Below, piece after piece: positions 33,674 through 50,950 of a stretch of 64,000 nt of DNA. The DNA lies in the NCBI GenBank assembly GCA_963674745.2, contig CAXXDV010000001.1, positions 1,376,001-1,440,000 of the forward strand. Direction: 5' to 3'. Below the pieces are notes generated by a model. The model ran no database searches and was not told the DNA's origin. It worked only from the letters and a program-made list of their open reading frames with translations. Numbering within the stretch: the first letter of the stretch is position 1; each line of letters begins with the position of its first letter. This DNA comes from Desulfosudaceae bacterium. Its GTDB lineage: Bacteria; Desulfobacterota; Desulfobacteria; Desulfobacterales; Desulfosudaceae. The position numbers and the translations under genes were made by a program.

Positions 33674-33750
33674 TAATGATTATATAGTCGGTTTGCCTTT
33701 TGCCCGAAATCTGATTTCGTATAGTAAATAAAATTTTATCAGGGATTAAT

Positions 33751-33826: not shown

Positions 33827-34252
33827 TTACCGGTTAGGCTTCCTGTGGTCTTGAACAATTTCACTACAGATCTCTACGCACTCTGAGCAAATCTCCACTC
33901 CTGGGCCTGAGATCATCATGAAGACCTCACTTTCATCCTTCGTGTAAAAGTCGCAGGTTCGACCGTTTGTACTGACAGGGCCTTCTGTTGATTTGATTTC
34001 TTCAACTGTCATTTTGGCTTGCTTGGCTACAGCGGGGTCTCTGTCACTGCACAATTCCTCCAATATGAAAACTGGCGTAGCAAATTTCTGGGCTAAAGTT
34101 TTCCGCACTGCCGGGTTGTTGCTTTCCAGCAGCCGTTCACATAAAATTACTGTATCGATCAAGTGAGAAAAGCATTCAAGGTTGTCTGCGATCTCCTCGA
34201 CAATTTCATTGTCGTTGGTATCTATCCAGTGATTCAGGGCTTCTTTGTCCAA
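33827..34252 (-). CDS. LRV/HEAT-like repeat protein fused to a degenerate ClpX-type C4 zinc finger; start uncertain
   Basis: NPAVRKTLAQ..ATP..ILEELCSD; CDFYTKDESEV.MMISGPGVEICSECVEIC. Confidence 0.65.
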   Translation of the reverse strand: MDKEALNHWIDTNDNEIVEEIADNLECFSHLIDTVILCERLLESNNPAVRKTLAQKFATPVFILEELCSDRDPAVAKQAKMTVEEIKSTEGPVSTNGRTCDFYTKDESEVFMMISGPGVEICSECVEICSEIVQDHRKPNR

Positions 34253-34306
34253 ATGTTTGTATATAAATTTTTAATCAGTATTGACAATTGTCCCCAATAG
34301 TCCCAC

Positions 34307-34687
34307 TTACTTATAATAAATAAATATTTGCTTCTCTTTTTCATCGATTTCTACAATAACACCGAAATCGTTCTTCAAAATACTGAACATTTCTTTATAA
34401 GAAGAATATTTAAACGAAAATCGCTCATACACACCGTCATTTATAACTTCATAACCTTTATATCGATTGCGACCTTCGAAAAAGTTCGTCAGGAGTTTGT
34501 TCTCAACAACTGTATGACGAACCCCGTCGATGTATTCCCAATGCACGGAAGTTCTAAAGTAACGCTTTTCCTCTAATTCTTCAGCCGAAAGAAAATTAAA
34601 CACACAGCCTGAAAATAAAACAATCGCTATCAAAATTTTAGCAGATCTGACAACATTCTTCTTTTTGTGTTCACGTTTATTCATCAT
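34307..34687 (-). CDS. Exported hypothetical protein
   Basis: Basic N-terminus and hydrophobic signal (ILIAIVLFSGC); RBS AAGGGG. Confidence 0.65.
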   Translation of the reverse strand: MMNKREHKKKNVVRSAKILIAIVLFSGCVFNFLSAEELEEKRYFRTSVHWEYIDGVRHTVVENKLLTNFFEGRNRYKGYEVINDGVYERFSFKYSSYKEMFSILKNDFGVIVEIDEKEKQIFIYYK

Positions 34688-34717
34688 ATCGATCCCCCTT
34701 CTGATAATTTAAGGTTG

Positions 34718-35380
34718 TTATTTACCAGCCCCCTCAAGAATGGCCACTATTTCTGTACGGTTTTTCTCTTCTGCAATATCCAATGGCGTATTACCCTCTT
34801 TGTCCCGGGCATCCGGATCAGCCCCGTACTCCAGAAGTTGCCGAATGGCTTCTCTTTCGTCTTCAATTATGCCGGACTTTTGTGCGGCCCGGTGCAAAGG
34901 CGTCTGCCCCAACTGATCACACCGGGTGTTTACATCAGCACCATTTTCCAGCAGCAGTTTCACAACTGCGAGGTTGCTCCCTCCCCCCCTGTTCGCTTCA
35001 TTCAAGGGTGTCAGTCCCCGTCCATTTCTGGCTTCAATATCCGCACCTGCGTCCAGCAGCATCCTCACCATGTCAGTAGAGCGTTCAAAAGCTGCCAGAT
35101 GCAAAGGTGTCGCGCCCGAGTGATCTTTGACATTGACATCCGCACCTCTTTCCAGCAGAAAATCCATAATTTGCGGGTTTGCAGCACTGGCTGCGGCACA
35201 CAAGGGTGTCCGGCCGGCACGATCTCTGATGTTAATATCCACTCCGTTTCCCAGCAAGTTCTCCACAGTCTGGATATCTCTTTTGCCTATCGCACGAAAT
35301 AATTCCTTTTTATCATCGGCAGAAACAAAACCCGTCATTACAAAAACAAACAAAATAGATGACAACAATAATCGACGCAT
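34718..35380 (-). CDS. Exported ankyrin-repeat protein (orphan immunity-like)
   Basis: Signal peptide; repeated GxTPLHxAA...LLxxGADVN. Confidence 0.92.
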   Translation of the reverse strand: MRRLLLSSILFVFVMTGFVSADDKKELFRAIGKRDIQTVENLLGNGVDINIRDRAGRTPLCAAASAANPQIMDFLLERGADVNVKDHSGATPLHLAAFERSTDMVRMLLDAGADIEARNGRGLTPLNEANRGGGSNLAVVKLLLENGADVNTRCDQLGQTPLHRAAQKSGIIEDEREAIRQLLEYGADPDARDKEGNTPLDIAEEKNRTEIVAILEGAGK

Positions 35381-35637
35381 GCCCCCTCCTCTTTATTAAG
35401 CATTAAATAAAATACTGTTTTCGTTTTTGCTGCCTATGCTTTCCCCCAAAACCTTTATAGCGGCTGGGGGTGACACCCTCCACAGTAGCGACAGGTACAA
35501 TGAGGGCATTCTTTATTTCAAAGATTTTGATCAGTTCAAGAAGATTGTTGCAGCCTATAAAAACAGGATTAAAAAAGTTACAACCAATGAAACCTCTGTT
35601 TTGCCTACTTACTGTTTGAAAATGATTTGCCTTCTTG

Positions 35638-35672
35638 TCTCCCGGTGTGTCGATCCTTGCCTTCCGTGGCAT
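35638..35672 (-). pseudogene. 5' remnant of an HUH (Y1/REP-associated tyrosine) transposase
   Basis: MPRKARIDTPG with RBS GGGAG and TATAAT upstream resembles the N-terminus of RAYT-like transposases; similarity stops after about 11 codons. Confidence 0.55.
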
Positions 35673-35794: not shown

Positions 35795-36298
35795 TTATGG
35801 GCGTACCTTATTTCTCTCCTTTGGGTGAATAATTAGCCAACCACCAATTCTTTTTTCTTTTCCAACATTAGGTATATAATAATTCCAGAATATCAAAATG
35901 TCTTTCCTCAAGAAATTGTTTATCTCCGGAAATCTTTCTTGTAATAAAATCTTGCCATCTAAAGTTTCTCCGGGTTTTAACTTAACAAGTGTTATGCCAG
36001 GATCCTCAATAGTTGTTAATTCACGGAGAGGGGCTCTTTTATCATCTAAAGGGATTACACAAAATATCATTGTAGGCGTTGGACGCCAAGGCAAGTACAC
36101 CTCATTGAATATTAAAGGAGAGTTACCTTCGTTCTTTAATATCATTTTAAGGTTAATATTATCTTCATCATACAAAATCTGTGCTTCAACATTAAACAAT
36201 AAGTCATTATTTTTAGATATCACATTATCACACTGTAGACAAATAACTAGTATCGTTAACACTATAAACAATTTTTGTTTACATGAATTGTTGTGCAT
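35795..36298 (-). CDS. Putative immunity protein of cassette 6 (exported, Ig-like); alternative start 36328
   Basis: Overlaps the tip stop; hydrophobic N-terminus; LKNEGNSPL...LKPGET Ig-like pattern. Confidence 0.7.
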   Translation of the reverse strand: MHNNSCKQKLFIVLTILVICLQCDNVISKNNDLLFNVEAQILYDEDNINLKMILKNEGNSPLIFNEVYLPWRPTPTMIFCVIPLDDKRAPLRELTTIEDPGITLVKLKPGETLDGKILLQERFPEINNFLRKDILIFWNYYIPNVGKEKRIGGWLIIHPKERNKVRP

Positions 36299-36830
36299 AT
36301 TCCTGAACCCTATTAATTTCATCTTCAATTTTTTTAATGCATAGAGAATCCGGATCGGTGCATTTTAATTCTGTCTTTTTTGCTTTCAAACAAACTAAAG
36401 ATTTATTACATGCGCGCCGTTCTGAAGGCGCTCTTTCACTCCACTCCCACCAAATTCTGGTCATATAATCTTTACCTTTACAAATATTATTGTTAATTCT
36501 TAGAGCATCCTCTATATGTATGTTTTCATGCGCTCGAGAACAATCTTTGAAGCATTCACCGCCTGGTGCCAAATATGGCATAATCCCACCCCTGCCATCG
36601 CATACAATTGTGTTGTTGGGATAATCTTTATCGAGCTTCCCGCTTGCGGTTAACAACCCTCTTTCATCATAATAATTTTTTGGATTTCCCATGGCATATA
36701 GATAATAACTATTCACTCCACGACTTGATCTAATCGGATCAACCCTCAAGTACCTCCCCTTGCCCGGATCATAATACCTATTCCAATTATAATGTAGCCC
36801 TGTCTCGTCATCATAGTATTGGCCCGGATA
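36279..36830 (-). pseudogene. Orphan Rhs tip, cassette 6 (HExxH; paralogue of the expressed tip)
   Basis: YPGQYYDDETGLHYNWNRYYDP...DERGL then NTIVCDGRGG...RAHENIH. Confidence 0.88.
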
Positions 36831-37007
36831 TATTCTGATGCGAGTCCCCCATAAAGACCTGTTTTTTACCCCCCTTGTTTTGTTGGCCCCCGGATGAACT
36901 CATTTTCAAAGATATGATAGTTTACCATATGGTCGTTGGGCAAAAAAACCGTCACCCACTAACAACACAAAGAAACCGAAGAAACGCATAAAAGCATGGA
37001 CGTCCCC
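36817..37007. repeat. Cassette junction repeat R6 (A+B+C)
   Basis: TATTGGCCCGGATATATTCTGATGCG...AAAGACCTGTTTTTTACCCCCCTTGTTTTGTTGG; TATGGTCGTTGGGCAAAAAAACCGTCACCCACTA; GAAACGCATAAAAGCATGGACGTCCCC. Confidence 0.92.
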
Positions 37008-37054
37008 ATTAGCCCTCAAGAAAAAATGAATATAAAAATGTAAAGATCAGTTAT

Positions 37055-37768
37055 TTACTTACTTTGACCCTTTTGCTCCCCACCGGCAGGCAAGCAGCAG
37101 GTGTCATCCTTACCAAGTTGCATCAACTTTTTATCACCTGAAGACAAATCTAATAAATACAATTTCTCCCTTAATGGATTATTCTGGTTGGGTCTTTCAA
37201 CCAAAAGAATAATTCCAGGTTCTATTACCCGTACGGCATCAATCGCACTGATGAGAAATTCTGCTTCTTGATCAAAAGAGTCATAAATTAACGTCATTGT
37301 CAAACTGCTATCCACTGAAATAATAGTTGTTCTTGCGGGCCTTGAAGTAGAAACAATCATTAGTGCTTTATTTTCTATCGAAGCAATTGGTGTCGTAATA
37401 AATAATAGATGATCATAGGTCACGTCACGAGCGGTTTTATTTTTAATATCATAGCAAGGAACATATCCAGACACATGGTCAGGAATTTCGTTTTGAACAA
37501 TAAAAGCATGTTCTATAAAAGCTAGCCTTGTCCCAAGTTGTTGCTTGTTAAACTGTTCAAGTTCTGCTCTTAATTTCTTTAAACACAATGGTTCTTGGTT
37601 ATTTAATTCAAACTGTTTCTCAAAATCACTGTAATTACTAATATAATATGAAAAAGCAACAAGTAAACGTGGCAACTGATAAGGAGATAGATAAGAATCA
37701 TTGCCACTCGAAACAACATGACATGGTAAACATGTTAGAATAATTACAAGTATGATAGTTTTACCCAT
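37055..37768 (-). CDS. Putative immunity protein of cassette 5 (exported)
   Basis: Directly downstream of tip 5; signal peptide MGKTIILVIILTCLPCHVVSS. Confidence 0.7.
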   Translation of the reverse strand: MGKTIILVIILTCLPCHVVSSGNDSYLSPYQLPRLLVAFSYYISNYSDFEKQFELNNQEPLCLKKLRAELEQFNKQQLGTRLAFIEHAFIVQNEIPDHVSGYVPCYDIKNKTARDVTYDHLLFITTPIASIENKALMIVSTSRPARTTIISVDSSLTMTLIYDSFDQEAEFLISAIDAVRVIEPGIILLVERPNQNNPLREKLYLLDLSSGDKKLMQLGKDDTCCLPAGGEQKGQSK

Positions 37769-37815
37769 GTTTCAAGCCCTCTATTTTTTCAATATCAATT
37801 TGCAATTAATTCTTA

Positions 37816-38454
37816 TTATAAGATACATCCCGAAATAAAATCTTTTCTATTACACCAACCTTTTAAAGGGTCTGTATAAAAATAGAGGGTTCCTCCGCTC
37901 ATGCCTTTCACTGTTACAGTCCCCGTTGGAGATAATGGTTTGCTTCTTTTGACCAATGTTCTTCCTCCTCCCTTACAACATTTCCAACACTTTTGAACCA
38001 GTTCGCAATTTTGGTGTCCAACGCACATTATTTCACCGCCACCGGTTTTATCAGACCCTCCAGAAGCATTAGTTATATTTTTCCAAGCAGCTTTTCGATT
38101 TTTGTTTTTCAGGTTAGCCCCATTCAATTTTCCACAAGTTCTGGCAGTATTTGTTCTTGAACAACAAGCAGATATACTCGCTTTAGCGTCAGCCAATCCA
38201 GGAGGGATAGTTTTGATGTCATTATAGCTAACAATAGCCCATGGTTCAATTTCCCCCATCGTCCACTCATCTGCTACGCTTAATGCTTTCGAATCAATAA
38301 GATTTACCGGGGTATTCCAAACATACTCATAAAGATTAATCCCGCCGCCTACACCAATCGGATCAACCCTCAAGTACCTCCCAACCTCAGGATCATAATA
38401 TCTGTGGTAGTTGTAGTGCAGACCAGTCTCATCATCGAAGTATTGGCCCGGATA
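37816..38454 (-). pseudogene. Orphan Rhs tip, cassette 5 (Cys-rich, basic, unknown activity)
   Basis: YPGQYFDDETGLHYNYHRYYDP...RVDPIG...DSKAL. Confidence 0.88.
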
Positions 38455-38664
38455 TACTTCGATGTGGGTTACCCCCGAAAGACCTGTTTTTTACCCCCCT
38501 TGTTTTGTTGGCTGTTGGAAATAAAACTGTTCTTTATGGGTTAAAGGGAAGGGGAGTTAAAAGATGCAGAAGCGCATCCATTCTATATGGTCGTTGGGCA
38601 AAAAAACCGTCACCCACTAACACACGAAAAAACCGGAGAAACGCATAAAAGCATGGACGTCCCC
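38441..38664. repeat. Cassette junction repeat R5 (near-identical to R2)
   Basis: About 224 bp matching 45103-45324. Confidence 0.92.
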
Positions 38665-39119
38665 TATTCGTTCCCTTTTTGTTCCAATGAAATAGCAGGA
38701 ATCTTTATGAATTTAATTTCGACATCACTATCATCAAAATTATTATCTAATTTTTTTATTTTGTACTCGATTTTACATGGATAGTACTCATCTAAAGAAA
38801 TTATTATTGTAATTTTTGATGGTAGTTTCCCACACCTGTCTCCCCATAAAGAAGGGCCTTTATATGTATTGAACTTATAATTTACTTCAAATGTGCCATC
38901 TTTTCTGCTAATTTCTGAATCACCATATTTATCCTTATCAAGAAATACGATTACCGAAGCATCTGATATCGAACAATCAATACAATCTCTATCTTTTGTG
39001 ATAACACTGCCAATTACTTTTATTGTTTCATAAGGACATTTTGGCATTGCTTTATCAACGAATAGCAGAGTAGACATGTTAATAAAAAATAAAGATAAAA
39101 TTATTTTTTTCATAGCCAT
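38664..39119 (-). CDS. Putative immunity protein of cassette 4 (exported, beta-sandwich-like)
   Basis: Signal peptide MKKIILSLFF; stop codon overlaps the GTCCCC boundary. Confidence 0.7.
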   Translation of the reverse strand: MAMKKIILSLFFINMSTLLFVDKAMPKCPYETIKVIGSVITKDRDCIDCSISDASVIVFLDKDKYGDSEISRKDGTFEVNYKFNTYKGPSLWGDRCGKLPSKITIIISLDEYYPCKIEYKIKKLDNNFDDSDVEIKFIKIPAISLEQKGNE

Positions 39120-39137
39120 CCTTCATATTACATTGTT

Positions 39138-39731
39138 TTATTTGCATTCACATGGGTTTCCATTTCCATATCCGAAACAGGATTTTTCACACGCTTCTGG
39201 CTTTGCTTCAGTAAAATGCCTACAACTATGCACCATCTCATGCAATATTGTGGACTTAAGAGGACCACAGCTGCTAATAGAGAAACCCGATCCACTGATA
39301 TAAATAGTATCTGAAAAAAGTGGTGCTGCATGACCACAATAGGATTTATTATCACACTTTATCTTAAGTTTAGCCCATTTATCTTTTAGACAACGTTTAA
39401 GCAAACCGTCCTTAATACAATTCGAATTAATAGCAACTGCGACATCAACCATAGCTCCATCAATTGCCGAAATATGACCTGAACAAGATTCATAGATCGC
39501 ATAAAGTCCTTTTTCATCAAAAATGGTCAATATATTATTTTGAGCATATACATATGTATTTAATGTGCTTGGTTTATCTATCGAATCAAACAATAAGAAT
39601 GGAATTTGCTGTTCCTCTGAATACAGATTATGGCTTGGATCAACCTTCAAGTACCTCCCCTTGCCCGGATCATAATACCTATTCCAATTATAATGTAGCC
39701 CCGTCTCTTGATCATAGTATTGGCCCGGATA
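39138..39731 (-). pseudogene. Orphan Rhs tip, cassette 4 (HExxH metallopeptidase-like)
   Basis: YPGQYYDQETGLHYNWNRYYDP...DEKGL; TIYI...STILHEMVHSC. Confidence 0.88.
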
Positions 39732-40029
39732 TATTCTGATGCGCCTTCCCCCCGAAAGACCTGTTTTTTATCCCCCTTGTTTTATCGGCCCCCAAGGTTC
39801 ACTTTAATATCAAAATTCGTGTATCTTCGTAATTCCGTGGCCCTGAAGGCAACCAGGCAGGCATATAAAAAATGCTCTCCCTCCTTATTCATGCCTGCCT
39901 GGGGGAGTTTTTTTGACCATAAGATTGACCTTATTCCCTATGGTCGTTGGGCAAAAAAACCGTCACCCACTAACACTCATAAAAAGAAAACAAATAAAAA
40001 TAGGCACTTAATTGAATAAGTTCATAAGT
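39718..40029. repeat. Cassette junction repeat R4 (A+B; distal part interrupted by the IS)
   Basis: Motif A at 39718, motif B at 39939. Confidence 0.88.
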
Positions 40030-41861
40030 GATTCCTGAGAAGTAACTCTGTAAATTCCGGCAGTAATTTGCTATAAAGCGTTATGTATAAACGGACTGAC
40101 CGCCAAAGACAACTATTCGGAATAGAATCGCAGCTGCCTGAGTCGTTACAAATACGTTTGAAAGAATCTTGGGCTCAGATTTTCAATCAAGAAATTCTTT
40201 CCATCTTGATGAACAACGAAGATCAATTTTCTCAACTGTATGGCACCACAGGACGGCCCAATTTCAGTGTGGCGCGTATGTTGGGTCTTTGTCTGCTGCA
40301 AGAACTAAACAATCTGAGCGATCAACAAGCCCTTGATGCATTTGGGTTTGACATCCGTTGGCGATATGCGTTGGATGTGGACGAACAGGATGCATACCTG
40401 TCTCGCCGATCACTTGTTGAGTTTCGCAGGCGTTTAGCTGCCAAAGATCCGGAGATGAGAAGTGTTCGCACCATCTTTGAGCAGATCAGCAAGGCAGCCA
40501 TTAAAAAGCTTGGCCTTTGCGCAAGCGACCAAAGAGTGGATTCTACTCATATCGTATCCAACATATGCACCCGTGGCCGGCTGGATCTGTTTAACAAAAC
40601 CATCAACCTGTTTCTTAAAAGCCTGACAGTGGCCCAGTATTCACGCGTCCCCCAATATATAGCAAATTGGCACCAGCAAGAATCAAACGGCTGGTTCGGA
40701 TTAGGGGCCGGTGAACGCAAGGCAGAGTTGAAGCAACTGGCAAAATACTTAAACAAACTTATTGTCATTTTTAAAAAAGACAAACAGGTAGCAGCCGACG
40801 AGCCTTATCAACTGCTTGTACGACTATTCAATGAGCAATGTGAAATCCCTTCGGGCGAATCCGGACAAGAGAACAAGGCCGACGAACAAATCAAAATTAA
40901 GAAAAAATGCACTGGCGAAACTCTGCAGTCTCCATATGACACCGATGCTTCTTACGGGCATAAAGGCAAGGGTTACAGTGTCCATATCACCGAGACGTGC
41001 AATAATCCGAAAAAGAAGGAAATCATTACCGACTACGAGGTGCATGGCGCAGCCCGGTCAGATGTAGCGAAAGCTCCGGATATTCTTGATCGATTGGAAG
41101 CAGCAGATTTAAAGCCGGAGACGTTTTTTGCCGACGGTGGCTATCCTTCAGTGCCTTCGGCGGTAAAGGTTGTTGAACGTAGTGTCGAGTTCATTGCCCC
41201 GGTAAACCGCAGCAAGCTGGCGGACGAAGTAATGGGGCGAGACCAATTTAAGTTCGACAAACAGGGACATGTATCGTATTGCCCGATAGGGCACCAACCG
41301 GTCGACCATCGGATGCTTAGCGCCAATAATAAAAAGGGCAAATCGCTATACGCGATTTTTGATGGTGATCTTTGTCGCAAGTGCAGCAAACTTGAACAGT
41401 GTCCGGTACGCGCGCCCAACCATCGCGAGCGTGGCTGCAGGCCACAGGATACAGTAGGCGACTTTAGATTGGAAATAACCGATGGTCTTCGCCTAAGAGA
41501 CCAAATGTTTGCGGATCAACGGACAAAAAGCTGGAAGGACCGTTATAAAATACGCTCGGGGATTGAGGCAACAATGTCGGAATTGAAACGAAGCCATGGA
41601 ATGGCAATGCTTCGAGTTCGCAAGCTGCCAAAAGTAAGCTTCGCTGTGGCATGTAAAGTAATAGCATGTAACATAAAACGCTGGGCCAAGGCCTATGCGC
41701 AGCCAAATCATGCGCATAGCCGCCTTATAAGCCAAACTTGGGGCCTAATACGGCAATCTACGCCTCGACTCGGAAGGATAAGGTCTATCTCCCGGTCAAC
41801 GGCCCGCCGAAAATTTTGTTGTGCAACCTGATGCAAAATGGGGGCTTACTTCTCAGGAATC
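40030..41861 (+). mobile_element. Complete IS, IS1182-like (1832 bp)
   Basis: Perfect 16-bp TIR GATTCCTGAGAAGTAA; 6-bp target duplication ATAAGT (40024-40029 and 41862-41867). Confidence 0.92.
40083..41831 (+). CDS. DDE transposase, IS1182-like
   Basis: GRPNF..LSDQQA..DIRWRYAL, QRVDSTHI, LQSPYDTDA, FADGGY, YKIRSGIEATMSELKR. Confidence 0.9.
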   Translation: MYKRTDRQRQLFGIESQLPESLQIRLKESWAQIFNQEILSILMNNEDQFSQLYGTTGRPNFSVARMLGLCLLQELNNLSDQQALDAFGFDIRWRYALDVDEQDAYLSRRSLVEFRRRLAAKDPEMRSVRTIFEQISKAAIKKLGLCASDQRVDSTHIVSNICTRGRLDLFNKTINLFLKSLTVAQYSRVPQYIANWHQQESNGWFGLGAGERKAELKQLAKYLNKLIVIFKKDKQVAADEPYQLLVRLFNEQCEIPSGESGQENKADEQIKIKKKCTGETLQSPYDTDASYGHKGKGYSVHITETCNNPKKKEIITDYEVHGAARSDVAKAPDILDRLEAADLKPETFFADGGYPSVPSAVKVVERSVEFIAPVNRSKLADEVMGRDQFKFDKQGHVSYCPIGHQPVDHRMLSANNKKGKSLYAIFDGDLCRKCSKLEQCPVRAPNHRERGCRPQDTVGDFRLEITDGLRLRDQMFADQRTKSWKDRYKIRSGIEATMSELKRSHGMAMLRVRKLPKVSFAVACKVIACNIKRWAKAYAQPNHAHSRLISQTWGLIRQSTPRLGRIRSISRSTARRKFCCAT

Positions 41862-41890
41862 ATAAGTTAAGAACGTCCCCTATTTGTCTC

Positions 41891-42715
41891 CTAAATCTTA
41901 ACTTTATTAGGAAGGTCTAATATCACTTCGGTTTTCAAATCTAAAACAGCATGTGGGAAAGATTTTCTTATAGTAAAGGTTTTCTTCAGAATGCCTACAT
42001 ATTTCGAAAAAGAATATATTTCTATAGTTGCATTTTCTTCCTTAAGATTAATGATTGGTTCCGGATTTATTTTTAGGGCATCGGCTTTCAATTGTTTTGG
42101 TATATACTCAGAGACAATGCGCGTTAACGTCTGCTTGTCACATATAATAGTAAGTTTGCTATAATTTTCATGGTCTGCCAATAAAAAACTGTCACCCATT
42201 AAATACAAAACAGCCAACTGAAAAAATCCCATTGGAGTACCGTCTGTTTTGACATATCGGATAAATCTTTTTTGTAGGATTTCAGCATAATCGGGATCTG
42301 ATTCATCCCAGCTACCTACCAAGGACGACCATATAGCACACGCTGTTTCAGAATCATATTCATTACGATTATTCTTTTTGGCATATATAATTGGTCTGCC
42401 ACTCATAGAAAAAAAGCAATAAAAATACTCTAACGAATAATCATTCAATATTGATAAACTGCCTAATATGTCAAAGTATTTATTTATATCTATTTTCATT
42501 TCTTTATTATTGTCTAATAATTCTTTCTCAAAAATAGTAAAGTATCCTTTCACTCCCAATTTTTCTAAAAATTCTTTTTGCTGATCTTCAATGCACATAG
42601 AAAAGTTATCAACTATTTCCTGATATTTCGATTTAGAAAACGAAAAAGATGAATCAATAAATATAATAGTAAAGATAGTTAATACTGTAAAAAATATAGC
42701 AAGAGTATTTTTCAT
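41891..42715 (-). CDS. Putative immunity protein of cassette 3 (exported)
   Basis: Start reassigned to MKNTLAIFF immediately after the tip 3 stop; signal peptide. Confidence 0.7.
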   Translation of the reverse strand: MKNTLAIFFTVLTIFTIIFIDSSFSFSKSKYQEIVDNFSMCIEDQQKEFLEKLGVKGYFTIFEKELLDNNKEMKIDINKYFDILGSLSILNDYSLEYFYCFFSMSGRPIIYAKKNNRNEYDSETACAIWSSLVGSWDESDPDYAEILQKRFIRYVKTDGTPMGFFQLAVLYLMGDSFLLADHENYSKLTIICDKQTLTRIVSEYIPKQLKADALKINPEPIINLKEENATIEIYSFSKYVGILKKTFTIRKSFPHAVLDLKTEVILDLPNKVKI

Positions 42716-42717
42716 TA

Positions 42718-43362
42718 TTATTCTCCCAGTGCATATCCATAAGTTGAATATTGTGCACCATATCCATAATCTCCATCTTCTGGCCTTTTGTTTTGGAACC
42801 AAGGGTATCCTACCTTTCTCAAATCAGGTCTTGTCCCCCCCTTGAATTCTGCAAAATGGCCAAACTCATGAATCAGAACATTTCCTCCCCACTCAGGATT
42901 ATTGTTTTTTAGCTTTGGGCTAAGAGTAATTGTATTAGTATTAGGGTCGTATTCCCCCGTTCCTCGAACATCACCAAAACGTACTATAGTGCCACTACAT
43001 TCTGCTGTTAATATTTCTTTTATATCCACATTAAATAAGTTGAAATAGTCAACACCATTTATATATTCCTTTTGTCGGTCCATAAACCATTTCTCTGCTC
43101 TGGGATTATAATCTATATTTTGCATTATGTTATTAATATATCCTTTTATTATTGCTTTTTCATTTTCATCATTTGTTCCGTATAAAATTAGTCCTAATTG
43201 ATCAATATTAAAGACAGGATTATTATCCACATACAAATAATAATTAATCCCACCGCTCAACCTAATCGGATCCTCCCTCAAATACCTCCCAGACCCAGGC
43301 TCATAATACCGCCACATATTATAGTGCAGCCCCGTCTCACTATCAAAGTATTGGCCCGGATA
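42718..43362 (-). pseudogene. Orphan Rhs tip, cassette 3 (HExxH zincin-like)
   Basis: YPGQYFDSETGLHYNMWRYYEP...DQLGL; GEYDPNTNTITLS...VLIHEFGH. Confidence 0.88.
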
Positions 43363-43491
43363 TATTCTGATGCGGGTTCCCCATAAAGACCTGTTTTTTA
43401 CCCCCCTTGTTTTGTTGACCCCCGGATGAACTCTTTTCTCAAGATATGATAGTTTACCTTTCAAATCAAACGATCTGTGGCAGTTAAAAAA
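43349..43491. repeat. Cassette junction repeat R3 (long form of A)
   Basis: Matches 46277-46417 through ...TTTACCTTTCAAATCAAACG...CAGTTAAAAAA. Confidence 0.88.
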
Positions 43492-43791
43492 GAAAACAAA
43501 TCGGGTGAAAGCGGCTCCAATATGCCGGAGATGATCCGCTGCCATTTTTTGGGCAGACCGGCGTAGATGGTTTTCAACCGTTCCCGACGAGCTTCGTATT
43601 CCAGGCAAATATTTTGTACGGCAGGACTCGAAGCCACGGCGGAACAAACATCACAACCATCTTACCCGCACGGCCACAGGCGAGGTCGGCCGGCAGAATG
43701 GGGGCGCTTTTCGGGGGCGTCTCCGTCCCCTAAGTCGTTCCCATGTTGGCTTGGTGCGCCCCCATTTGACAGTTAGTCTATTTTGTCCCCC

Positions 43792-44577
43792 TCAGTTAGG
43801 GCTACATATTTCAAGTGGGGGTTTGTGGAGTTCTGTAAAAATTGGGGGGAATATATCATCTTGCGTACCACATAAACCATCTTTACCTTTTGAACCTAAA
43901 AAATAAAATACACTTCCACTCTTATATATAAAACTATGGCTCCATCCATCTATAACTAAATTTGATTCGAAATTATTGTTTTCAGTTTTTAATTCCATTA
44001 AATCAACTGGATATTTCCCTTTGGTGTTGAAAAAATTTTTTAAATGTTTCTGAATATTATATAATTTGACCTTTGTTAAACTTATTGGATCAAGCTCAGA
44101 GTACTCGTACCCATAAGGAATTTTATAACAAATATGCTCTATTATAAAAACAATCCGTTCATTTCTTTTTTGTCTAATCAAATTGATATTTTGTTCATTC
44201 GGCATTTCATCATGTATAGCTTCAGCCAACATTTTTCTTCTTAAGAAGGGTAAAGAGGAATCCCCCTTCTCAATTATGGCTTTCGTAATAATTTCCATAG
44301 GGGTCTCGCCCAAATAAAAATCCAAAAGATCTACTAATAATTCTGAGGATTTAATACTTTTAAGCCCACTTAATTCATCAAGCGAATTATAAAATATATT
44401 GATATCTTTTTTACTATATATATTTGTTTTTAAAATATTTTTTAGTAAAAAACATATTTCCTTTTCCTCTTTGTATTTTTGTAATAAATCGTTTCTTCCA
44501 TCAATATTCGCGGCTTCTAAAAATCCGCTTAGACTAATAGAAGCTAAAAACATAAAAACAATAATTCTTACTATCAT
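43792..44577 (-). CDS. Putative immunity protein of cassette 2 (exported; C-terminal GspG/pseudopilin-like motif)
   Basis: ATGA overlap with the tip 2 stop; GKYPVDLMEL...DGWSHSFIY...SKGKDGLCGTQDDI. Confidence 0.7.
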   Translation of the reverse strand: MIVRIIVFMFLASISLSGFLEAANIDGRNDLLQKYKEEKEICFLLKNILKTNIYSKKDINIFYNSLDELSGLKSIKSSELLVDLLDFYLGETPMEIITKAIIEKGDSSLPFLRRKMLAEAIHDEMPNEQNINLIRQKRNERIVFIIEHICYKIPYGYEYSELDPISLTKVKLYNIQKHLKNFFNTKGKYPVDLMELKTENNNFESNLVIDGWSHSFIYKSGSVFYFLGSKGKDGLCGTQDDIFPPIFTELHKPPLEICSPN

Positions 44578-45116
44578 TTGACCACCAGTGTTCCGCCTTT
44601 ATCTTTTGTTAGGCAATATATTAAAGTTGACAAGTTCTTATTCACAGAAATACATCCTATGTTCTTTTGACCAGCACCATGAATGAAAAATTCTGTTCTT
44701 CCGTGTGCTTTATGGCCATTGGGTTTTAGGTATGCCCATTTTGGGTGTTTAGATATCCAACCAGGAGTATATATTTTCCAATTGCCTGTCGGTATTGGGC
44801 CGCCTACTTTTTTTTCTGAACTTTCTTTTCCATCCCCTGAAAAGGCTGATGAAGAAAAATTACAACATTTTTTGTCATTAGTATTAAAGGTACATACGAG
44901 TGTGCCATTTGTACCCGCACCTCGTGTATATGTACATGAAGCTAACCCTTTGTTATCAAAGAAAATAGCCGGATTGATATTGGCATAAAAATAAAGATTA
45001 ATCCCACTTTCAAATCCCACTGGATCAACCCTCAAGTATCTCCCGATCTCAGGATCATAATACCTATTCCAGTTATAATGCAGCCCGGTCTCATCATCGT
45101 AGTATTGGCCCGGATA
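44574..45116 (-). pseudogene. Orphan Rhs tip, cassette 2 (Tlde1/DUF2778-like L,D-transpeptidase fold)
   Basis: AFSG...GPIPTGNWKI...RTEFFIHG-x5-IGCI. Confidence 0.85.
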
Positions 45117-45325
45117 TATTCTGATGCGGGTCCCCCCCGAAAGACCTGTTTTTTACCCCCTTGTTTTGTTGGCTGTTGGAAATAAAACTGTTCTTTATGG
45201 GTTAAAGGGAATGGGGTTAAAAGATGCAGAAGCGCATCCATTCTATATGGTCGTTGGGCAAAAAAACCGTCACCCACTAACACACGAAAAAACCGGAGAA
45301 ACGCATAAGAGCATAGACGTCCCCC
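45103..45325. repeat. Cassette junction repeat R2 (A+B+C)
   Basis: Near-identical to 38441-38664. Confidence 0.92.
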
Positions 45326-45333
45326 GGTAACAA

Positions 45334-45747
45334 CTATTTCCCAGGCATAAAACTTAAATAGATTGGTGGGCCTTCATTATATGAATGTAGAAATATTTTA
45401 ATAGTTGCAACTTGATACAGTTCTTTAAACATGAAGTAAAAAACTGGATAATTATAGCCATTTTCCGATGGATTATATGTTCCATCAAATTTAAATATTT
45501 CTTTATCTGTAATAATTGAGCAACTTACTTTATAATGAGTCGTTTGTTTTTGACTTATTTCCCTCTCGTTAAATGCTAATACATACGGACCGCCATATAT
45601 TAAAGGAGTAGTAATTATATTCTCTCCCTCCTTTAATTTTTTTTCAATAGGGTCAATAAATATTATATGCTTCAAAGACCAAAAAACAAAACCGACTATT
45701 ATTAAAATTATGACTAGAGAAAGGCTACTTATTATTTTTATATTCAT
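45334..45747 (-). CDS. Putative immunity protein of cassette 1 (N-terminal TM)
   Basis: Downstream of tip 1; MNIKIISSLSLVIILIIVGFVFW. Confidence 0.7.
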   Translation of the reverse strand: MNIKIISSLSLVIILIIVGFVFWSLKHIIFIDPIEKKLKEGENIITTPLIYGGPYVLAFNEREISQKQTTHYKVSCSIITDKEIFKFDGTYNPSENGYNYPVFYFMFKELYQVATIKIFLHSYNEGPPIYLSFMPGK

Positions 45748-45774
45748 TTCGACGGCCTCGAATAATTTCTAGAC

Positions 45775-46287
45775 TTATAATTCCGGATAAATTAGCCACC
45801 AAGGAGTTGGGTCTTTAAGGCCACATGTTATGAATGCTTTTCGAACTTTGACTCCACAAGTGTCGAATAGTGTAATTGCGCCACTCGGGCCATTATTTAC
45901 TAAACATGTTTCAATTTCGCTCCAAGGCCTTACATCACATTCATCCTCTCTCTCAGCAGGATAACAGTGAGCATGTCCACTTTCATATTTATTGGGTTCT
46001 GCTGGGGCACTCAATTTTTGTCCATTACTTAATTTGATAAAAGCATGCCATAGTACAGCAAGTTCTCCCATTTTCTCATTATGACCCATCATTGGACGAT
46101 AGCAGGCTATAGGTCGAAGGCCAAAGGCATCACTGTTGTTTATGGGATTATTAAACGCATACAAAAACAGAGTAATCCCTCCATTTAACCCGATCGGATC
46201 AACCCTCAAGTATCGTCCAATTTTAGGATCATAATATCTGTGTCGGTTATAATGCAGCCCCGTCTCACTATCAAAATATTGGCCCGG
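45775..46287 (-). pseudogene. Orphan Rhs tip, cassette 1 (possible permuted papain-like fold)
   Basis: PGQYFDSETGLHYNRHRYYDP...DAFGL; CYRP...WHAFI...DTCG..V..A...CGL. Confidence 0.85.
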
Positions 46288-46417
46288 CTATATTCTGATG
46301 CGGGTCCCCCCCGAAGACCTGTTTTTTATCCCCTTGTTTTGTTGGCCCGTAAGAAGGCTTTTCTAAAGATATGGCAATTTACCTTTCAAATCAAACGGTT
46401 TGTGACAGTTAAAAAAA
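46277..46417. repeat. Cassette junction repeat R1, contiguous with the recombinase 3' flank
   Basis: Motif A copy about 200 bp downstream of the recombinase stop. Confidence 0.88.
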
Positions 46418-48488: not shown

Positions 48489-48587
48489 CCTCGTAGTCGT
48501 TCGGTTTGTGTCTTAACATCAGATGGTTAAGTGCCATTTTGACAGCCCTCGTTGTTCCCTCGTAGTTGCCCGAATTACCCTCGTAGT
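48489..48587. repeat. Four short direct repeats CCTCGT(A/T)GT
   Basis: Copies at 48489, 48547, 48558 and 48579. Confidence 0.7.
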
Positions 48588-50950
48588 CGGCTACTCTTCT
48601 CTTGTTTCATGAGTTTTTTTATTTCTTCGATCGGCGTCAGGTTTAAATAAAACCGGGTGATGTCTTCTCCCTGGCCCTTGTAATTTAAAGCATAGGCATA
48701 CTCCTTGCCCCTGGCACCGAACCGGACAAGCAGATATTCCAGGTCCTCAAGCTGGCTGATGTGGGCGCGGATCTGCCAGTCCGTCCAATTGATGGCTTCT
48801 CTGATCTGCCGCCGGGTAAAAAAGACCTCATCTACCGGGATCCTTTGTTTTTTGGATATGTCCATAACCATGCGATAGATGCCGTCAAGCAGTATCCGGG
48901 AAGGCCGGACCAGCTCGTCCAGGCTCTGACCCAGGACGTCATTGGCCAGGACATTGGCTTTGTTAATATCATCTAGAGTAACCTCGATGTATTCCACGGC
49001 CTTGCCGTCCGCCTGCACGGTCCTGGTCTGTCTCTGGTACTGATGCAAAAAGGCAATGGCCTCGATCAGGCCCAGGTATTTGTCATGGTCCCTTCGGCTG
49101 ATAAGCGATTTTGTGGGATAGGACAGGTACGGCGTAAAAGGGTTGACCACGGCCACGGGCTTTAACATCTGCTGGGCGATCTGGTGGATACGTTCAATAT
49201 GGGTTGATTTGGTCCGGTTGACAAGGCCCTCCAAAGTCCGGGCCTGCTTCTGCTTGTCGTGGATGGCGGCCGTCATGGATTCTGATTCGTCTATTGAAAG
49301 AAAGATAAACCGGGAAGCTGTCTCGGCTTCAATGTCGGCTGCCGTGGTGGTCAGCATGACCGAGACCGGGCCTTCCACGGTATAGGTTTCTGTTTTCATC
49401 TTGCCGGTGCCCGGGTCTTTCCCGGTCGCGGCAACTCTGATCCGGCCTTCTGACTGGATATTTCTTATGGAATAGGCAGCCCCGCCCACGCCCGCCTCCT
49501 CCTCGATGGCCAGGATTTTATGCTTTAATGATCCTTCTTCCTTGTAAAAAAGGGCCTGATCGGTCACGCGGGTGTATTTTTCTTGATGGCTTTCCGGAAC
49601 AAAGCGGAGGATGGCGTTCTGTAATGTCGATTTACCGGCCCCGCTTCGGGACTGGATCAGGGTGGACAAGGGCTTTGCCAGAAGCCGGGACACGGCCGTC
49701 AAATAACAAACAATCTTGTTGGTTTCTTCGCCCACAATGCCCATGACCAGCAAGGCGTCAAGGATTTCTTTAAACATGTCCGGAGATTTTAAAAATTTTT
49801 CTGCGGCGGTCTTTTCTGTCTGGCTGGGCTCAAGGGGTTTGGTTTCCTGGGCTTTGGGCTGGAAGTTTTCCACCAGGGTCAGGAGTTTGCCGATATCTTC
49901 TTTTGCCAGCTCCTCGGCCGCGCCGAACAGGTCGGCGCAGAGTTTCGCAAACCACAGCCGGGACCGGGAAGAATAAAGATCAATGGTGGTCAGCTCAAAA
50001 GGCAGGTTGCTCTCAACGTCGGCAGATGCCTTGATCACGGCTTTTAGCTGGGTCTCGCCGCGCTGTATGCCCTTGACGTGGTATTGTCGTTTTCCGTATC
50101 CCACGATAAAGCCCTGTTGCGTATGCTTGTAGATGGTCTTTTTGCGGGGATGGACATAATCGGAGTGTTCCAATGCTTTCGGGTTGACCTGATTCAGTAG
50201 GGCCTCGAACTGCTCGGGGGTATGCCGCTTAAAGTAGATGGTAACATCTTTAACGGGCAGCTCAATAGCATAAGGCGTGACCTGTGCTTCTTTTAGCTGC
50301 AAGGACACGATTTGTGCTGTTTTGCGACCTTTGTCGTCACCGCTAAAGACCAGGTAGGCGTCTTTTATCCTGCCCTTGCAATAAGAAAGATGATCAGCGG
50401 TAATGCCGTTGGCGTCGTACAGGGGCATGACTTTTTTAAATCCTTGATCGTAAAGAACTAAAGCGTCAATGACCGTTTCTGTCAGCAGGATCGTCTGGGA
50501 ATGCTTGACAGCCCGGGTATTAATCAGGCCGGAACATCGGCCTGGCAGGTATAAATGGGGCTGTTCGGAGGCTTCGTCTGTTTTGCGGCCGTACAGATTG
50601 ACCACGGCCCCGGTTGTATCGTACAGCGGGAAGACCACGCAGTTTAAAAAGCGTTCCTTGCTTTTGGTGTTCAGGATGCCGATGGTTTTTAAATCAGCGA
50701 TAATTTTGTCATCATCCGGCAGGGTGGAAGGTAATGTGCCATTGACGTAGCCGGCGCCAAAGTCCCTTAAGGATTTGTTTTTATTTATGTTCCGGACGTT
50801 TTTCAGGTAGTCCAGCCCTAGGGCGGTCTTTTCAAACGTATGCTGATAATAGGCGACCACGCGCGCCAAAAGCTTTTTTTCTCTGACGGTCAGGGGGATG
50901 GAGTCGTTGTTTGTAACTTTGATGCGATCTGCGCTTTTTTGTTCTATCAT
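48575..50950 (-). CDS. DnaG-like primase/TOPRIM plus P-loop ATPase (helicase-like) fusion of a mobile element; start uncertain
   Basis: ERFLNCVVFPLYD..G.VVNLYGR, HLYLPG, LTETVIDAL, Walker A SRSGAGKS, Walker B LAIEEE. Confidence 0.85.
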   Translation of the reverse strand: MIEQKSADRIKVTNNDSIPLTVREKKLLARVVAYYQHTFEKTALGLDYLKNVRNINKNKSLRDFGAGYVNGTLPSTLPDDDKIIADLKTIGILNTKSKERFLNCVVFPLYDTTGAVVNLYGRKTDEASEQPHLYLPGRCSGLINTRAVKHSQTILLTETVIDALVLYDQGFKKVMPLYDANGITADHLSYCKGRIKDAYLVFSGDDKGRKTAQIVSLQLKEAQVTPYAIELPVKDVTIYFKRHTPEQFEALLNQVNPKALEHSDYVHPRKKTIYKHTQQGFIVGYGKRQYHVKGIQRGETQLKAVIKASADVESNLPFELTTIDLYSSRSRLWFAKLCADLFGAAEELAKEDIGKLLTLVENFQPKAQETKPLEPSQTEKTAAEKFLKSPDMFKEILDALLVMGIVGEETNKIVCYLTAVSRLLAKPLSTLIQSRSGAGKSTLQNAILRFVPESHQEKYTRVTDQALFYKEEGSLKHKILAIEEEAGVGGAAYSIRNIQSEGRIRVAATGKDPGTGKMKTETYTVEGPVSVMLTTTAADIEAETASRFIFLSIDESESMTAAIHDKQKQARTLEGLVNRTKSTHIERIHQIAQQMLKPVAVVNPFTPYLSYPTKSLISRRDHDKYLGLIEAIAFLHQYQRQTRTVQADGKAVEYIEVTLDDINKANVLANDVLGQSLDELVRPSRILLDGIYRMVMDISKKQRIPVDEVFFTRRQIREAINWTDWQIRAHISQLEDLEYLLVRFGARGKEYAYALNYKGQGEDITRFYLNLTPIEEIKKLMKQEKSSRLRG

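Follow-up and report, generated by a model that had tools for sequence, protein, structure and literature searches.

The window, i.e., the whole stretch of 64,000 nucleotides analysed here, has the components of an Rhs displacement array: a full-length (main) rhs gene and six orphan toxin tips, each followed by a small ORF (Table 1). The Pfam matches of the main gene product comprise Beta_helix in the N-terminal region and RHS_repeat and RHS (PF03527) near the C-terminus. The ORF that follows the main tip belongs to no Pfam or NCBIfam family and is unrelated to the gene after orphan 1; among the small genes at the distal end, the start of the 89-aa ORF resembles a REP-associated (RAYT-type) transposase, by eye only. 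The array, with a GC content of 37.1% vs 54% for the recombinase genes, contains the repeat families D1–D4. The tip of cassette 1 is 45% identical to the main tip, that of cassette 5 produces a weak Tlde1-like match, cassette 6 lies directly downstream of Rec2, and the insertion sequence appears, by eye, to have terminal inverted repeats. A scan of the region against Rfam yielded no family at the gathering score; the single match (32.8 bits vs 65) lies elsewhere in the region.

The two recombinases match the XerC/XerD models at E values of 1e-67 to 1e-81, below the NCBIfam equivalog cut-offs, and the catalytic residues are present in both; those of Rec2 (R, K, H-x-x-R, H, Y) are invariant among 10 homologues (alignment A2). 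The primase is 63% identical to residues 120–891 of the 892-aa protein from locus L051, and its homology to full-length relatives ends at position 50895, about residue 78, where nucleotide homology to G129, a genome of the same genus, stops as well.

Table 1. Features of the rhs locus in window coordinates (a caret marks the junction)
Feature	Position	Strand	Description
Full-length rhs gene, 4153 aa	20097..32558	+	ORF; beta-helix N-terminal region, RHS repeats, RHS core end, toxin tip
attB/attL-like site in main gene	31986..32009	+	AACCTGAGGTTC^CCGGGCCAGTAC; junction 31998 = Pro codon of PGQY
289-aa ORF	32804..33673	-	Signal-peptide-like start; between main tip and A(+) copy, opposite strand
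Element A copy (backbone left end)	33734..33811	+	Main-gene orientation; inverted repeats I4–I6, I8; matches backbone 30–62
Four small genes, distal array end	33827..35672	-	ClpX-type zinc-finger/HEAT-like, unknown, ankyrin-repeat, 89-aa ORF
Cassette 1	35795..36892	-	B 36828–36892; junction 36827; tail + tip 36279–36827; presumed immunity gene 35795–36328
Element A copy	36927..37007	-	Deleted backbone between cassettes 2 and 1; backbone 38–65 plus 6908–6997
Cassette 2	37055..38517	-	B 38452–38517; junction 38451; tip 37816–38451; presumed immunity gene 37055–37768
Element A copy	38576..38664	-	Backbone comparison, repeat D3
Cassette 3	38664..39790	-	B 39729–39790; junction 39728; tip 39138–39728; presumed immunity gene 38664–39119
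Element A core	39939..39976	-	Spacer retains backbone 30–163
Insertion sequence in spacer	40030..41866	+	582-aa DDE transposase 40083–41831; Pfam DDE_Tnp_1, DDE_Tnp_1_6, DUF772
Cassette 4	41891..43420	-	B 43360–43420; junction 43359; tip 42718–43359; presumed immunity gene 41891–42718
Deleted backbone remnant	43421..43791	-	Keeps backbone 175–247, 366–399, 6862–6997; without A core
Cassette 5	43792..45178	-	B 45114–45178; junction 45113; tip 44574–45113; presumed immunity gene 43792–44577
Element A copy	45236..45330	-	Backbone comparison
Cassette 6	45334..46345	-	B 46288–46345; junction 46287; tip 45775–46287; presumed immunity gene 45334–45747
Rec2, Xer-like tyrosine recombinase, 308 aa	46619..47545	-	Pfam Phage_integrase, E 8.5e-44
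Rec1, second Xer-like tyrosine recombinase, 331 aa	47542..48537	-	Stop overlaps Rec2 start (ATGA)
DnaG-like primase + helicase-like region	48575..51124	-	Pfam DNAG_N, Toprim_2; N-terminus truncated

The junction and element B

All six orphan Rhs tips of the window share the start base, CCGGGCCAATA, at which each is fused to a non-coding element of ~60 nt, denoted B. A 29-nt junction probe, with up to 3 mismatches allowed, identifies five sites (36817, 39718, 43349, 45103, and 46277) and has no matches in 100 shuffles; the sixth junction, at 38451, is more diverged and still aligns in register. The minus-strand consensus of the six copies (alignment A1) is ...AACAAGGGG(G/A)TAAAAAACAGGTCTT..GGGG..GCATCAGAATATAT^CCGGGCCAATA. 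The main-gene counterpart at 31998 reads AACCTGAGGTTC^CCGGGCCAGTA, and homology between the main gene and the orphans, also apparent as inverted repeats I1–I3 and I7, begins exactly at that C. The distance from the junction to the TTG of the L-x-x-DP motif is 78 nt in each copy, as measured from ORF coordinates or, for orphan 4, from the sequence. The invariant junction of the six orphan tips is confirmed by these observations. An earlier examination of the same DNA (the sequence-only reading) had claimed that the orphans share a start nucleotide and a conserved flank, that Rhs homology starts at the Pro codon of PGQY, 78 nt before the TTG, and that the full gene carries the corresponding site at 31998; all of this holds, with the distance now established in 6/6 copies.

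Averaged over all pairs of the six copies, identity amounts to 87.5% in B (60 nt), 74.0% in the 130 nt of Rhs tail that follow, and 51.4% in the toxin portion, so that non-coding B is better conserved than the coding tail beside it. The 8 bp CCGGGCCA are common to all seven copies (main gene and six orphans). The interpretation of TAT-CCGGGCCA-ATA as a recombinase core, put forward in the sequence-only reading, finds no clear support: only these 3-bp arms flank CCGGGCCA, as against the inverted arms and 6–8-bp centre of a dif-type site of 28–30 bp, and they are absent from the class 3 and type 2 lineages described below. A looser dyad (9 of 11, with a 10-bp spacer) can be discerned by eye in some window copies and is absent from both lineages; the junctions yielded no clearly dyad-symmetric, dif-like core. 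The Gln codon is, as had been pointed out, CAA in the six window orphans and CAG in the window main gene; the argument on the crossover position built on this difference does not hold for the second array of the genome, whose main gene carries CAA and one of whose orphans carries CAG.

The conservation of B might alternatively stem mainly from a role in expression, with B serving, in the manner of the integron Pc, as an outward-facing promoter or leader for each tip fragment and immunity gene, the fixed junction being inherited along. Protection does require expression of the stored immunity genes, a TTGACA or TTGAAA box precedes TAAAAA by 16–18 nt in the type 2 and class 3 copies (by eye), and conserved motifs after the recombinase gene are mentioned in the available part of the description of rAID-1 arrays (bioRxiv 10.1101/471110). 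However, the spacing of the boxes varies from 13 to 38 nt across copies, a promoter consensus scan produced 41 sites compared to a shuffle mean of 44.4, none of them in B, and a fusion fixed to the nucleotide is needless for a promoter. We therefore regard expression as very unlikely to be the main cause, with the proviso that a promoter role and a recombination-site role of B are compatible.

Backbone remnants and the same junction in other genomes

B is not a free-standing att site but forms the right end of an element backbone of ~7 kb that consists of A, a leader, the DnaG-like primase-helicase, Rec1, Rec2, and B. Compared with the G129 backbone, every window spacer is made up of its left and right ends, and the deletion end points differ from spacer to spacer, which excludes copying of one unit. 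The whole ~210-nt spacer at the element A copy 38576..38664 is 93–95% identical to the spacer at 45199–45324. For a 241-nt spacer, folding was not better than in shuffled sequences (z = 0.13), and there is no hairpin.

These deletions bear on the possibility that the array arose by tandem duplication alone, from a single ancestral orphan unit whose copies later diverged, with the recombinases being neighbours by chance. Such an origin would fit the direct-repeat family D1, with its regular unit structure, and the run of 55 nt that is identical in orphans 1 and 3. It is extremely improbable given that the toxin and immunity portions bear no relationship to one another (51% identity is the alignment floor), the spacers carry different backbone deletions, the same junction joins other tips in other genomes, and Rhs tails are linked to the recombinase clade. 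Specifically, among the 29 Rec2-clade loci with at least 450 nt of downstream sequence, an Rhs tail on the same strand within 1.5 kb downstream was detected in 22, where the recombinase pair is thereby linked to B as well, compared to 2 of 58 more distant Xer-like loci (33–41% identity). Two of the 22 matches (L092 and L100) are short and partial, and the other 7 Rec2-clade loci have no tail within the available DNA. The Rec2 stop is always about 130–1100 nt from the junction.

The junction is invariant in 9/9 B copies of this genome, i.e., in three beyond the window; the second array contains three B-fused orphans and no recombinase gene. The same junction is present at 10 loci in at least 8 other genomes of the order, and an exact pattern scan matched 9 stretches distributed over 7 public assemblies; the hosts of the public records are Desulfobacterales, Desulfosudis, and Thermodesulfobacteriota, not Bacteroidales. 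Diverged element lineages have such fusions at other fixed Rhs positions: in the class 3 lineage, a B-like sequence is fused at the same codon (F^TDQE, reading TAT^ACGGACCAGGA), in the type 2 lineage, at ^GYRYY (reading TCT^GGTTACAGATAC), and at L064 and L096, much further upstream in the core. The last G129 orphan lacks B and keeps 15 extra core codons, which is the classical displacement pattern. Two checks suggested by the sequence-only reading, for breakpoint variation in homologous arrays and for simple duplication of one unit, thus yielded an invariant junction that recurs in other genomes and spacers that are independently deleted backbones.

The canonical co-directional order, rhs core^tip-immunity gene-A-primase-Rec1-Rec2-B^orphan, is found in G129, G148, G075, and the metagenome contig L093, and is implied in the present genome across the C2-end/C3-end contig break; at L051, counterparts of the three backbone proteins, 63–69% identical to those of the window, are again encoded directly upstream of B^orphan. 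In G129, G148, G075, and L093, the backbone lies between an intact, tip-bearing rhs gene and an old tip fused to B. The orphans are co-directional with and downstream of the main gene in the former four and in the second array of the genome, but not in the window, whose array runs in the reverse direction, whose primase gene is incomplete, and where the main tip is followed by a gene on the other strand. Since the array and the recombinases face opposite to the expressed rhs gene and the primase lacks its N-terminus, the window locus is a rearranged and probably non-autonomous copy, with both recombinase genes intact.

Proposed insertion of elements into the rhs gene

That the breakpoint does not vary and is associated with two adjacent tyrosine recombinases is indicative of site-specific recombination. 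We interpret the junctions, with a probability of roughly 0.6, as right-end (attR-type) scars of serial, probably site-specific insertions by integrative elements that dwell in rhs genes. The complete element, ~7–8 kb in a sister genome, runs ^Rhs tail, toxin tip, immunity gene, A, leader, DnaG-like primase-helicase, Rec1, Rec2, B^, and this architecture itself is seen directly. The excised circle would carry B joined to its own Rhs tail (attP), which Rec1 and Rec2 would pair with the matching sequence where the last YD repeat of the resident rhs gene begins (F^PGQY), with strand exchange in or next to CCGGGCCA. In the resulting architecture, the resident core continues in-frame into the incoming tip, with the new immunity gene behind, and the old tip and its immunity gene lie displaced downstream, joined to B at a single invariant base. 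Successive rounds would stack the cassettes, and the backbones would subsequently shrink by internal deletion, keeping the B end and mostly the A end. The stored immunity genes may provide standing protection, and the stored tips may stay available for exchange.

Site-specific recombination, as already suggested by the sequence-only reading, gains comparative support from the constant junction elsewhere, the clade linkage, and the independent spacer deletions. Also in its favour are the co-directional architecture in other genomes, the L051 locus, the conservation of B above that of the tail, the other fixed fusion positions of the diverged lineages, the shortness of the identical tail runs, and the catalytic residues of both recombinases. 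Against it stand the lack of a clearly symmetric dif-like core, the second array without a recombinase gene, the Rec2-clade loci without a tail, the last G129 orphan, the fusions at L064 and L096, and the non-canonical order in the window. Given that no recombination product was seen in the assembled contigs of three public runs, and no excised circle was found, the action of the recombinases at the junction is what we infer rather than observe. A lone main-to-orphan ‘joint’ in the public-run contigs was rejected as a paralogue artefact.

The same arrangement could be generated by Campbell-type integration, in which a circular, primase-replicated element that carries a 5'-truncated rhs 3' fragment enters by one RecA-dependent crossover anywhere in the fragment, so that the fusion of B with the tail just reflects a constant left boundary of this fragment and the Xer-like pair performs another task, e.g., resolving circle multimers. 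Circular intermediates with a homologous crossover were proposed by Jackson et al. 2009 (in the accessible part of PMC2935791). Campbell-type integration predicts the same product order as in G129, G148, G075, and L093, and every other architectural fact too; furthermore, the carried rhs length varies by lineage, from about 30 to more than 150 codons, as expected for arbitrary edges, the main and orphan tails of L093 are identical over at least 47 nt, and one orphan tail of the second array is a mosaic of main-like and orphan-6-like sequence. RecA-dependent exchange needs about 23–27 bp. The partner tails, however, are only about 74% alike, the longest runs identical between the main tail and any orphan tail of the window are 8–17 nt (likewise 8–17 nt in register; a 10-nt run shared with orphan 3 is out of register), and in G129, the tails of the main gene and the first orphan agree only over the first 19 nt past the junction. 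Moreover, the conservation of B above that of the tail and the constant proximity of Rec2 to the junction are left unexplained. On balance, we consider Campbell-type integration unlikely.

Returning to site-specific insertion, the inversion of the array together with the intact recombinase genes implies that the pair could flip the DNA between the main site and the cassettes. A combined scenario, where Rec1 and Rec2 flip the main site with any of the six cassette sites, making the locus a reversible ‘toxin shufflon,’ and where the clade of Xer pairs and primases is dedicated Rhs tip-exchange machinery, appears quite unlikely as a whole. Were it correct, every flip would bring another tip into frame and store the previous one, and the clade would represent the long-missing dedicated machinery for Rhs tip exchange.

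Comparison with known systems

Rhs C-terminal displacement arrays were reportedly described by Koskiniemi et al. in 2014. According to the accessible part of PMC2935791, such arrays consist of a full rhs gene and stored tips with immunity genes, new tips displace old ones, and a circular intermediate is postulated. The present array similarly combines a full rhs gene with stored tip-immunity pairs. What differs here is the breakpoint fixed to the base (9/9 B-fused copies), as opposed to variable core lengths resulting from homologous crossover, the conserved non-coding element at this breakpoint, and the dedicated recombinase pair and primase that travel with the tips; in addition, the window array is on the strand opposite to the main gene.

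With integrons (IntI, attI, attC), the locus shares cassettes beside a tyrosine recombinase, with one fixed crossover point each. In contrast to integron cassettes, which are complete genes without a promoter, those found here are in-frame gene ends; the spacer has no attC-like hairpin, and neither recombinase scores above the cut-off of the IntI model TIGR02249 (109.3 and 132.9 bits for the two, cut-off 265). The presence of two paralogous Xer-family recombinases is reminiscent of the XerC/XerD-dif systems.

Some integrative elements and prophages target the 3' portion of a tRNA or protein gene and supply a replacement for that end. The parallels include an integrase next to attP, a block of identity from the crossover to the end of the target, a target that stays intact, and the use of different positions by different lineages; the hallmarks of a recombinase close to the site and of target homology starting at the junction are present here. 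The difference is that the Xer-like pair lacks an arm-binding domain and that the incoming end differs by design (a new toxin and immunity gene), so that insertion alters the target functionally rather than conserving it.

Xer-dependent recombination has reportedly been linked to Rhs-associated poly-immunity arrays in Xenorhabdus and Photorhabdus by Martinkus et al. 2026 (Curr Biol 36:176), as cited in the available portion of bioRxiv 10.64898/2026.07.13.738213; judging from this citation, that work may anticipate part of the present reading. The rAID-1 (recombinase-associated acquired interbacterial defence) arrays, as presented in the available parts of Ross et al. (bioRxiv 10.1101/471110) and Azhieh et al. 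(10.1101/2025.05.03.651265), encode one XerD-like recombinase and mostly immunity genes and are restricted to Bacteroidales. As far as these parts go, the tyrosine recombinase at the array head, the shared orientation and low GC content of the array, the repeated intergenic motifs, and the integron-like appearance are common to both, whereas here there are two recombinases and a primase-helicase, every cassette keeps a tip that starts at one Rhs codon, and, in relatives, the element resides inside the expressed rhs gene. The rAID-1 definition includes, in the available part of bioRxiv 10.1101/471110, a recombinase more than 44% identical to BF9343_RS08045; the present array has at least two co-directional downstream genes, a GC content within the rAID-1 limit of 41%, and intergenic repeats.

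Element B and its fixed junction with Rhs tails

Each cassette of the window consists of a non-coding element of about 60 nt, B, a tail-tip (the Rhs stretch that runs from a fixed base, the junction, into the toxin end) and a small, presumed immunity gene; below, ^ marks the junction. B, with the consensus ...AACAAGGGG(G/A)TAAAAAACAGGTCTT..GGGG..GCATCAGAATATAT, is fused at one base to CCGGGCCAATA in all six orphan (displaced) copies, and the main rhs gene at 31998 reads AACCTGAGGTTC^CCGGGCCAGTA, with main-orphan homology beginning at that C. A 29-nt probe spanning the junction matched five of the six sites with at most 3 mismatches and found nothing in 100 shuffles, and the sixth site, at 38451, is in register by alignment; the common starting base of the orphan tips, fused to a conserved element, that had been noticed in the sequence-only reading is real and far beyond chance. 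Mean pairwise identity among the six copies drops from 87.5% in B to 74.0% in the Rhs tail and 51.4% in the toxin part, the last value marking the toxin parts as unrelated. The GC content is 37% in the cassettes versus 54% in the recombinase genes.

Features of the rhs locus and backbone stretches matched by the spacers of the array
Feature	Window position	Strand or orientation	Matching stretch of G129 backbone	Remark
rhs gene, 4153 aa	20097-32558	+		main gene
element A copy	33734-33811	opposite orientation		follows the tip of the main gene itself
array of six tip cassettes		minus, converging on rhs gene		at its head, genes for two tyrosine recombinases and a primase-helicase
spacer before orphan 1			38-65 + 6908-6997	
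spacers before orphans 2 and 5			31-65 + 6940-6997	
spacer before orphan 3			30-163 + 6934-6997	
spacer before orphan 4			175-247 and 366-399 + 6862-6997	without A core
orphan 6				directly after Rec2

Two details of the earlier reading lack support: the TAT/ATA arms of a supposed recombinase core comprise 3 bp only and are absent from the other junction classes, and the contrast between CAA in the orphans and CAG in the full gene breaks down in the second array of the genome. A looser dyad, CATCAGAATAT-N10-ATACTATGATG, is seen by eye in some copies and carries little weight because the right arm encodes protein (QYYD).

The genome contains nine B^CCGGGCCA junctions, six in the window and three in the second array on contig C3, where the orphans are co-directional behind their main rhs gene and a recombinase gene is absent. 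The spacer between A (the element at the other end of the backbone described below) and B was matched in 16 of the order's 401 genomes, this one included; in eight of these 16, at ten loci, B is fused at the same base to (C/G)CGGGCCA(A/G)TAC, and the main genes of these eight genomes read N-x-R-F^(P/A)GQY. Variable breakpoints in homologous arrays, named beforehand as a refutation, are thus not what this lineage displays. Scanning the species collection for the exact pattern yielded nine stretches in seven assemblies, with titles mostly of Desulfobacterales, Desulfosudis or Thermodesulfobacteriota.

In diverged modules (57-62% identity), other fixed points of Rhs are joined to a B-like element with the blocks GCTCTTTGA, GGGGG-T-AAAAAAC-AG-CTCTT and a G-run; shared blocks are visible in an alignment of 25 distinct sites, a selected set for which the picking pattern demanded an upstream A-run. 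The type 2 junction, TCT^GGTTACAGATAC (^GYRYY), lies 14 codons beyond the F^PGQY point (type 1) and occurs in two tandem modules on C3, with matching main genes at the C2 end and at C3:44638. The class 3 junction, TAT^ACGGACCAGGA (F^TDQE), has the codon position of F^PGQY and is defined against the main genes of three other genomes (G075, G276 and G015). Locus L095 has a further junction variant, and in L064 and L096 the position of the B-like element is shifted upstream in the Rhs core, by about 60 and about 150 codons, respectively. The rule that the junction lies 8 nt before ATACTAY holds in types 1 and 2, fails in class 3 and was dropped.

B might serve as a promoter, which would be compatible with a role as a recombination site, but the box spacing gives no support, and a consensus scan detected no excess of promoters (41 vs 44.4 in shuffles) or terminators (8 vs 11.1). 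Neither the fold z-score of the spacer (0.13) nor an Rfam search, in which no family reached its gathering score, pointed to an RNA element there; the sole Rfam match, to psRNA2 just past the main gene stop (32674-32847; 32.8 bits vs a gathering score of 65), is probably due to chance. The 3' end of a group II intron, with the tips as alternative 3' exons, was rejected: the main gene junction has no intron 5' end, and B shows single-base length differences and no supported fold. An attC site was rejected for want of a hairpin.

The backbone, its decay and its recombinases

In G129, a genome of the same genus, one strand carries the rhs core^tail-tip, a small gene, A, a leader, a 907-aa primase-helicase, the recombinases Rec1 and Rec2, B^orphan tip, a small gene and a last orphan. 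This order recurs in G148 and in the metagenome contig L093, as well as in G075, where three tandem modules follow a 2158-aa rhs frame; it appears to be present also at a third locus of the genome analyzed here, across a contig break. In L051, a primase, Rec1 and Rec2 that are 63-69% identical to those of the window again lie upstream of B^orphan, and a further B^orphan precedes the primase. Judging by the gene order at all these loci, B and A are the right and left ends, respectively, of a backbone of about 7 kb that travels with tail-tip-immunity cargo.

The assembly breaks within tandem primase-Rec1-Rec2 modules at the ends of C2 (130752-131559) and C3 (2709185-2720852); the C2 end (rhs tip, A, leader) is 85-87% like the leader upstream of the C3 modules, and the two ends probably join. 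The last G129 orphan (C13, about 106150-106780, minus strand; 36151-36777 of the joined L082-L084) has 15 extra core codons before PGQY and no B in front, and is a classical displaced tip beside the B-fused one.

On the minus strand of the window, the repeat unit runs B^tail-tip, small gene, A, variable spacer, next B. By their matches to the G129 backbone (Table), the spacers are decayed backbones, and their deletion end points differ, which argues against an origin of the array by duplication of a single ancestral unit. The window primase is without its first ~78 residues, homology to G129 ending at 50895, and a search of the rest of the window for the missing leader and N-terminus found neither. 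We infer that one inversion of about 33812-50895, together with a loss of ~2.2 kb, would relate the window to the canonical order. Joints between opposite strands (32079/46205 and 32081/46203), considered as traces of an inversion, proved to be an artefact of a paralogous orphan (C3:2406031-2406173) that is 91.6% identical to a test query made from both joint sides; the joints came from assembled contigs of three runs of one study, which break at repeats, and bear on neither inversion nor excision. RNA runs are absent from the list of runs that contain the stretch. Other joints were left out, since they either had sides of just 20-30 nt or came from a single contig with 90% likeness.

The 3' part of A (GTTAGTGGGTGACGGTTTTTTTGCCCAACGACCAT) is confined to these arrays, and its 5' part, the first third, is one arm of a palindrome scattered elsewhere in the genome. 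These palindromes (GGGGACGTCTATGATTTTATGCGTTTCTT, loop, complement; stem of ~29 bp), found at C3:1554616-1592060 and in the window at 35705-35754, look like REP elements. A 340-aa IS200-like Y1 transposase (Pfam Y1_Tnp, E 1.3e-10; L022:242-1264, that is, C3:2400241-2401263), encoded where the second array ends distally, is possibly a REP-associated enzyme, of which an 89-aa window ORF (35403-35672) that starts MPRKARID, like Y1 transposases, may be a remnant. The spacer between cassettes 4 and 3 contains an insertion sequence (40030-41866) with a 582-aa DDE transposase and, by eye, ~17-bp inverted ends and the short target duplication ATAAGT; at 35747-35798 the target region is present once more, without the interruption.

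Rec1 and Rec2 are Xer-like tyrosine recombinases, with matches to the XerC/XerD models that stay under the equivalog cut-offs; the catalytic residues are present in both, and the genes overlap by ATGA. Rec2 homologues (E ≤1e-60) occupy 23 places in 15 of the order's 401 genomes. When these were pooled with 13 metagenome loci at least 43% identical (among the 80 matches listed) and L051, a same-strand Rhs tail was found within 1.5 kb downstream of 22 of the 29 loci with at least 450 nt of downstream DNA, three of the 29 coming from this genome and two of the 22 matches (L092 and L100) being short and partial. The control set, the remaining metagenome loci (33-41% identical) with enough downstream DNA, gave a tail in 2 of 58. 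Among the seven clade loci without a tail (L063, L071, L072, L074, L078, L101 and L105), the L074 sequence stops exactly at B^CCGGGCCA, and L072 continues into a YD-repeat frame. No relatives of the primase were found among viral contigs. Both type 2 Rec2 copies (L076, C3:2718726-2719631; L079, C3:2709443-2710357) have one in-frame TAA within the match, reflecting either a broken gene or overlap with the end of Rec1.

Exchange of toxin tips: proposed mechanism and related systems

New toxic ends of Rhs and other polymorphic toxins have so far been explained by homologous recombination. The comparative architecture across several families makes site-specific recombination at the junction plausible here: the Rec1/Rec2 pair would recombine B^tail of an excised circle, replicated by the primase, with the matching site of a resident rhs gene, placing the incoming tip in frame and leaving B ahead of the displaced one. 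A comparable replacement end is carried by elements whose insertion point is the 3' part of a tRNA gene; here, in contrast, the arriving end encodes a different toxin.

The main tail shares identical runs of only 8-17 nt with the orphan tails, and the G129 partner tails agree over the first 19 nt only; together with the strong conservation of B, this favours a crossover close to the junction over exchange by general homology. One homologous crossover within the Rhs fragment that the element carries would, however, also give this gene order and a fixed edge of B, and would fit the lineage-specific lengths of the carried fragments, the long identical tails in L093 and a mosaic tail in the second array; against the short shared runs and the conserved B, we consider it unlikely. 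The mosaic tail (C3:2406031-2406173), in which the first ~80 nt resemble the window main gene and the next ~60 nt orphan 6, is a sign of past exchange within tails.

Jackson et al. (2009; PMC2935791) proposed circles and homologous crossover, with no integrase known to accompany rhs; Steele et al. (2017; PMC5727410) saw genes resembling integrases close to the Rhs loci of bacteria from the bee gut and gave no mechanism, and Zhang et al. (2012; PMC3482391) observed XerC/D genes beside polyimmunity loci. Xer-dependent systems beside Rhs poly-immunity arrays are attributed to Martinkus et al. (2026; Curr Biol 36:176). The closest functional analogue is rAID-1 (Ross et al., bioRxiv 10.1101/471110; Azhieh et al., 10.1101/2025.05.03.651265). 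The literature searched, which covers few subscription papers, yielded no account of a recombinase-primase element joined to Rhs at a fixed point. We place the system, as a variant in its own right, among the recombinase-associated toxin/immunity cassette systems.

Several families of sulfate-reducer relatives have tip cassettes linked at a fixed base to a defined, portable module, which comprises a pair of Xer-like recombinases, a primase-helicase and a conserved end of ~100 nt. Should the recombinases act at the junction, they would form integron-like machinery by which an expressed protein gene receives a new end in frame; a direct test of toxin exchange would then need just two proteins and two short DNA sites, and the building of arrays of stored immunity genes outside Bacteroidales would be explained.

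Tips and adjoining genes

The main tip (31998-32555) and the orphan 1 tip (36282-36827) are 45% identical and have Cys/His motifs in common, and so belong to one toxin family. The genes adjoining these two tips are unrelated to each other, and the one at 32804-33673, behind the main tip, is encoded on the opposite strand. The orphan 5 tip (44574-45113) gave a weak match to Tlde1, an L,D-transpeptidase-like effector (E 0.0035; 18.2 bits vs a cut-off of 30.1).
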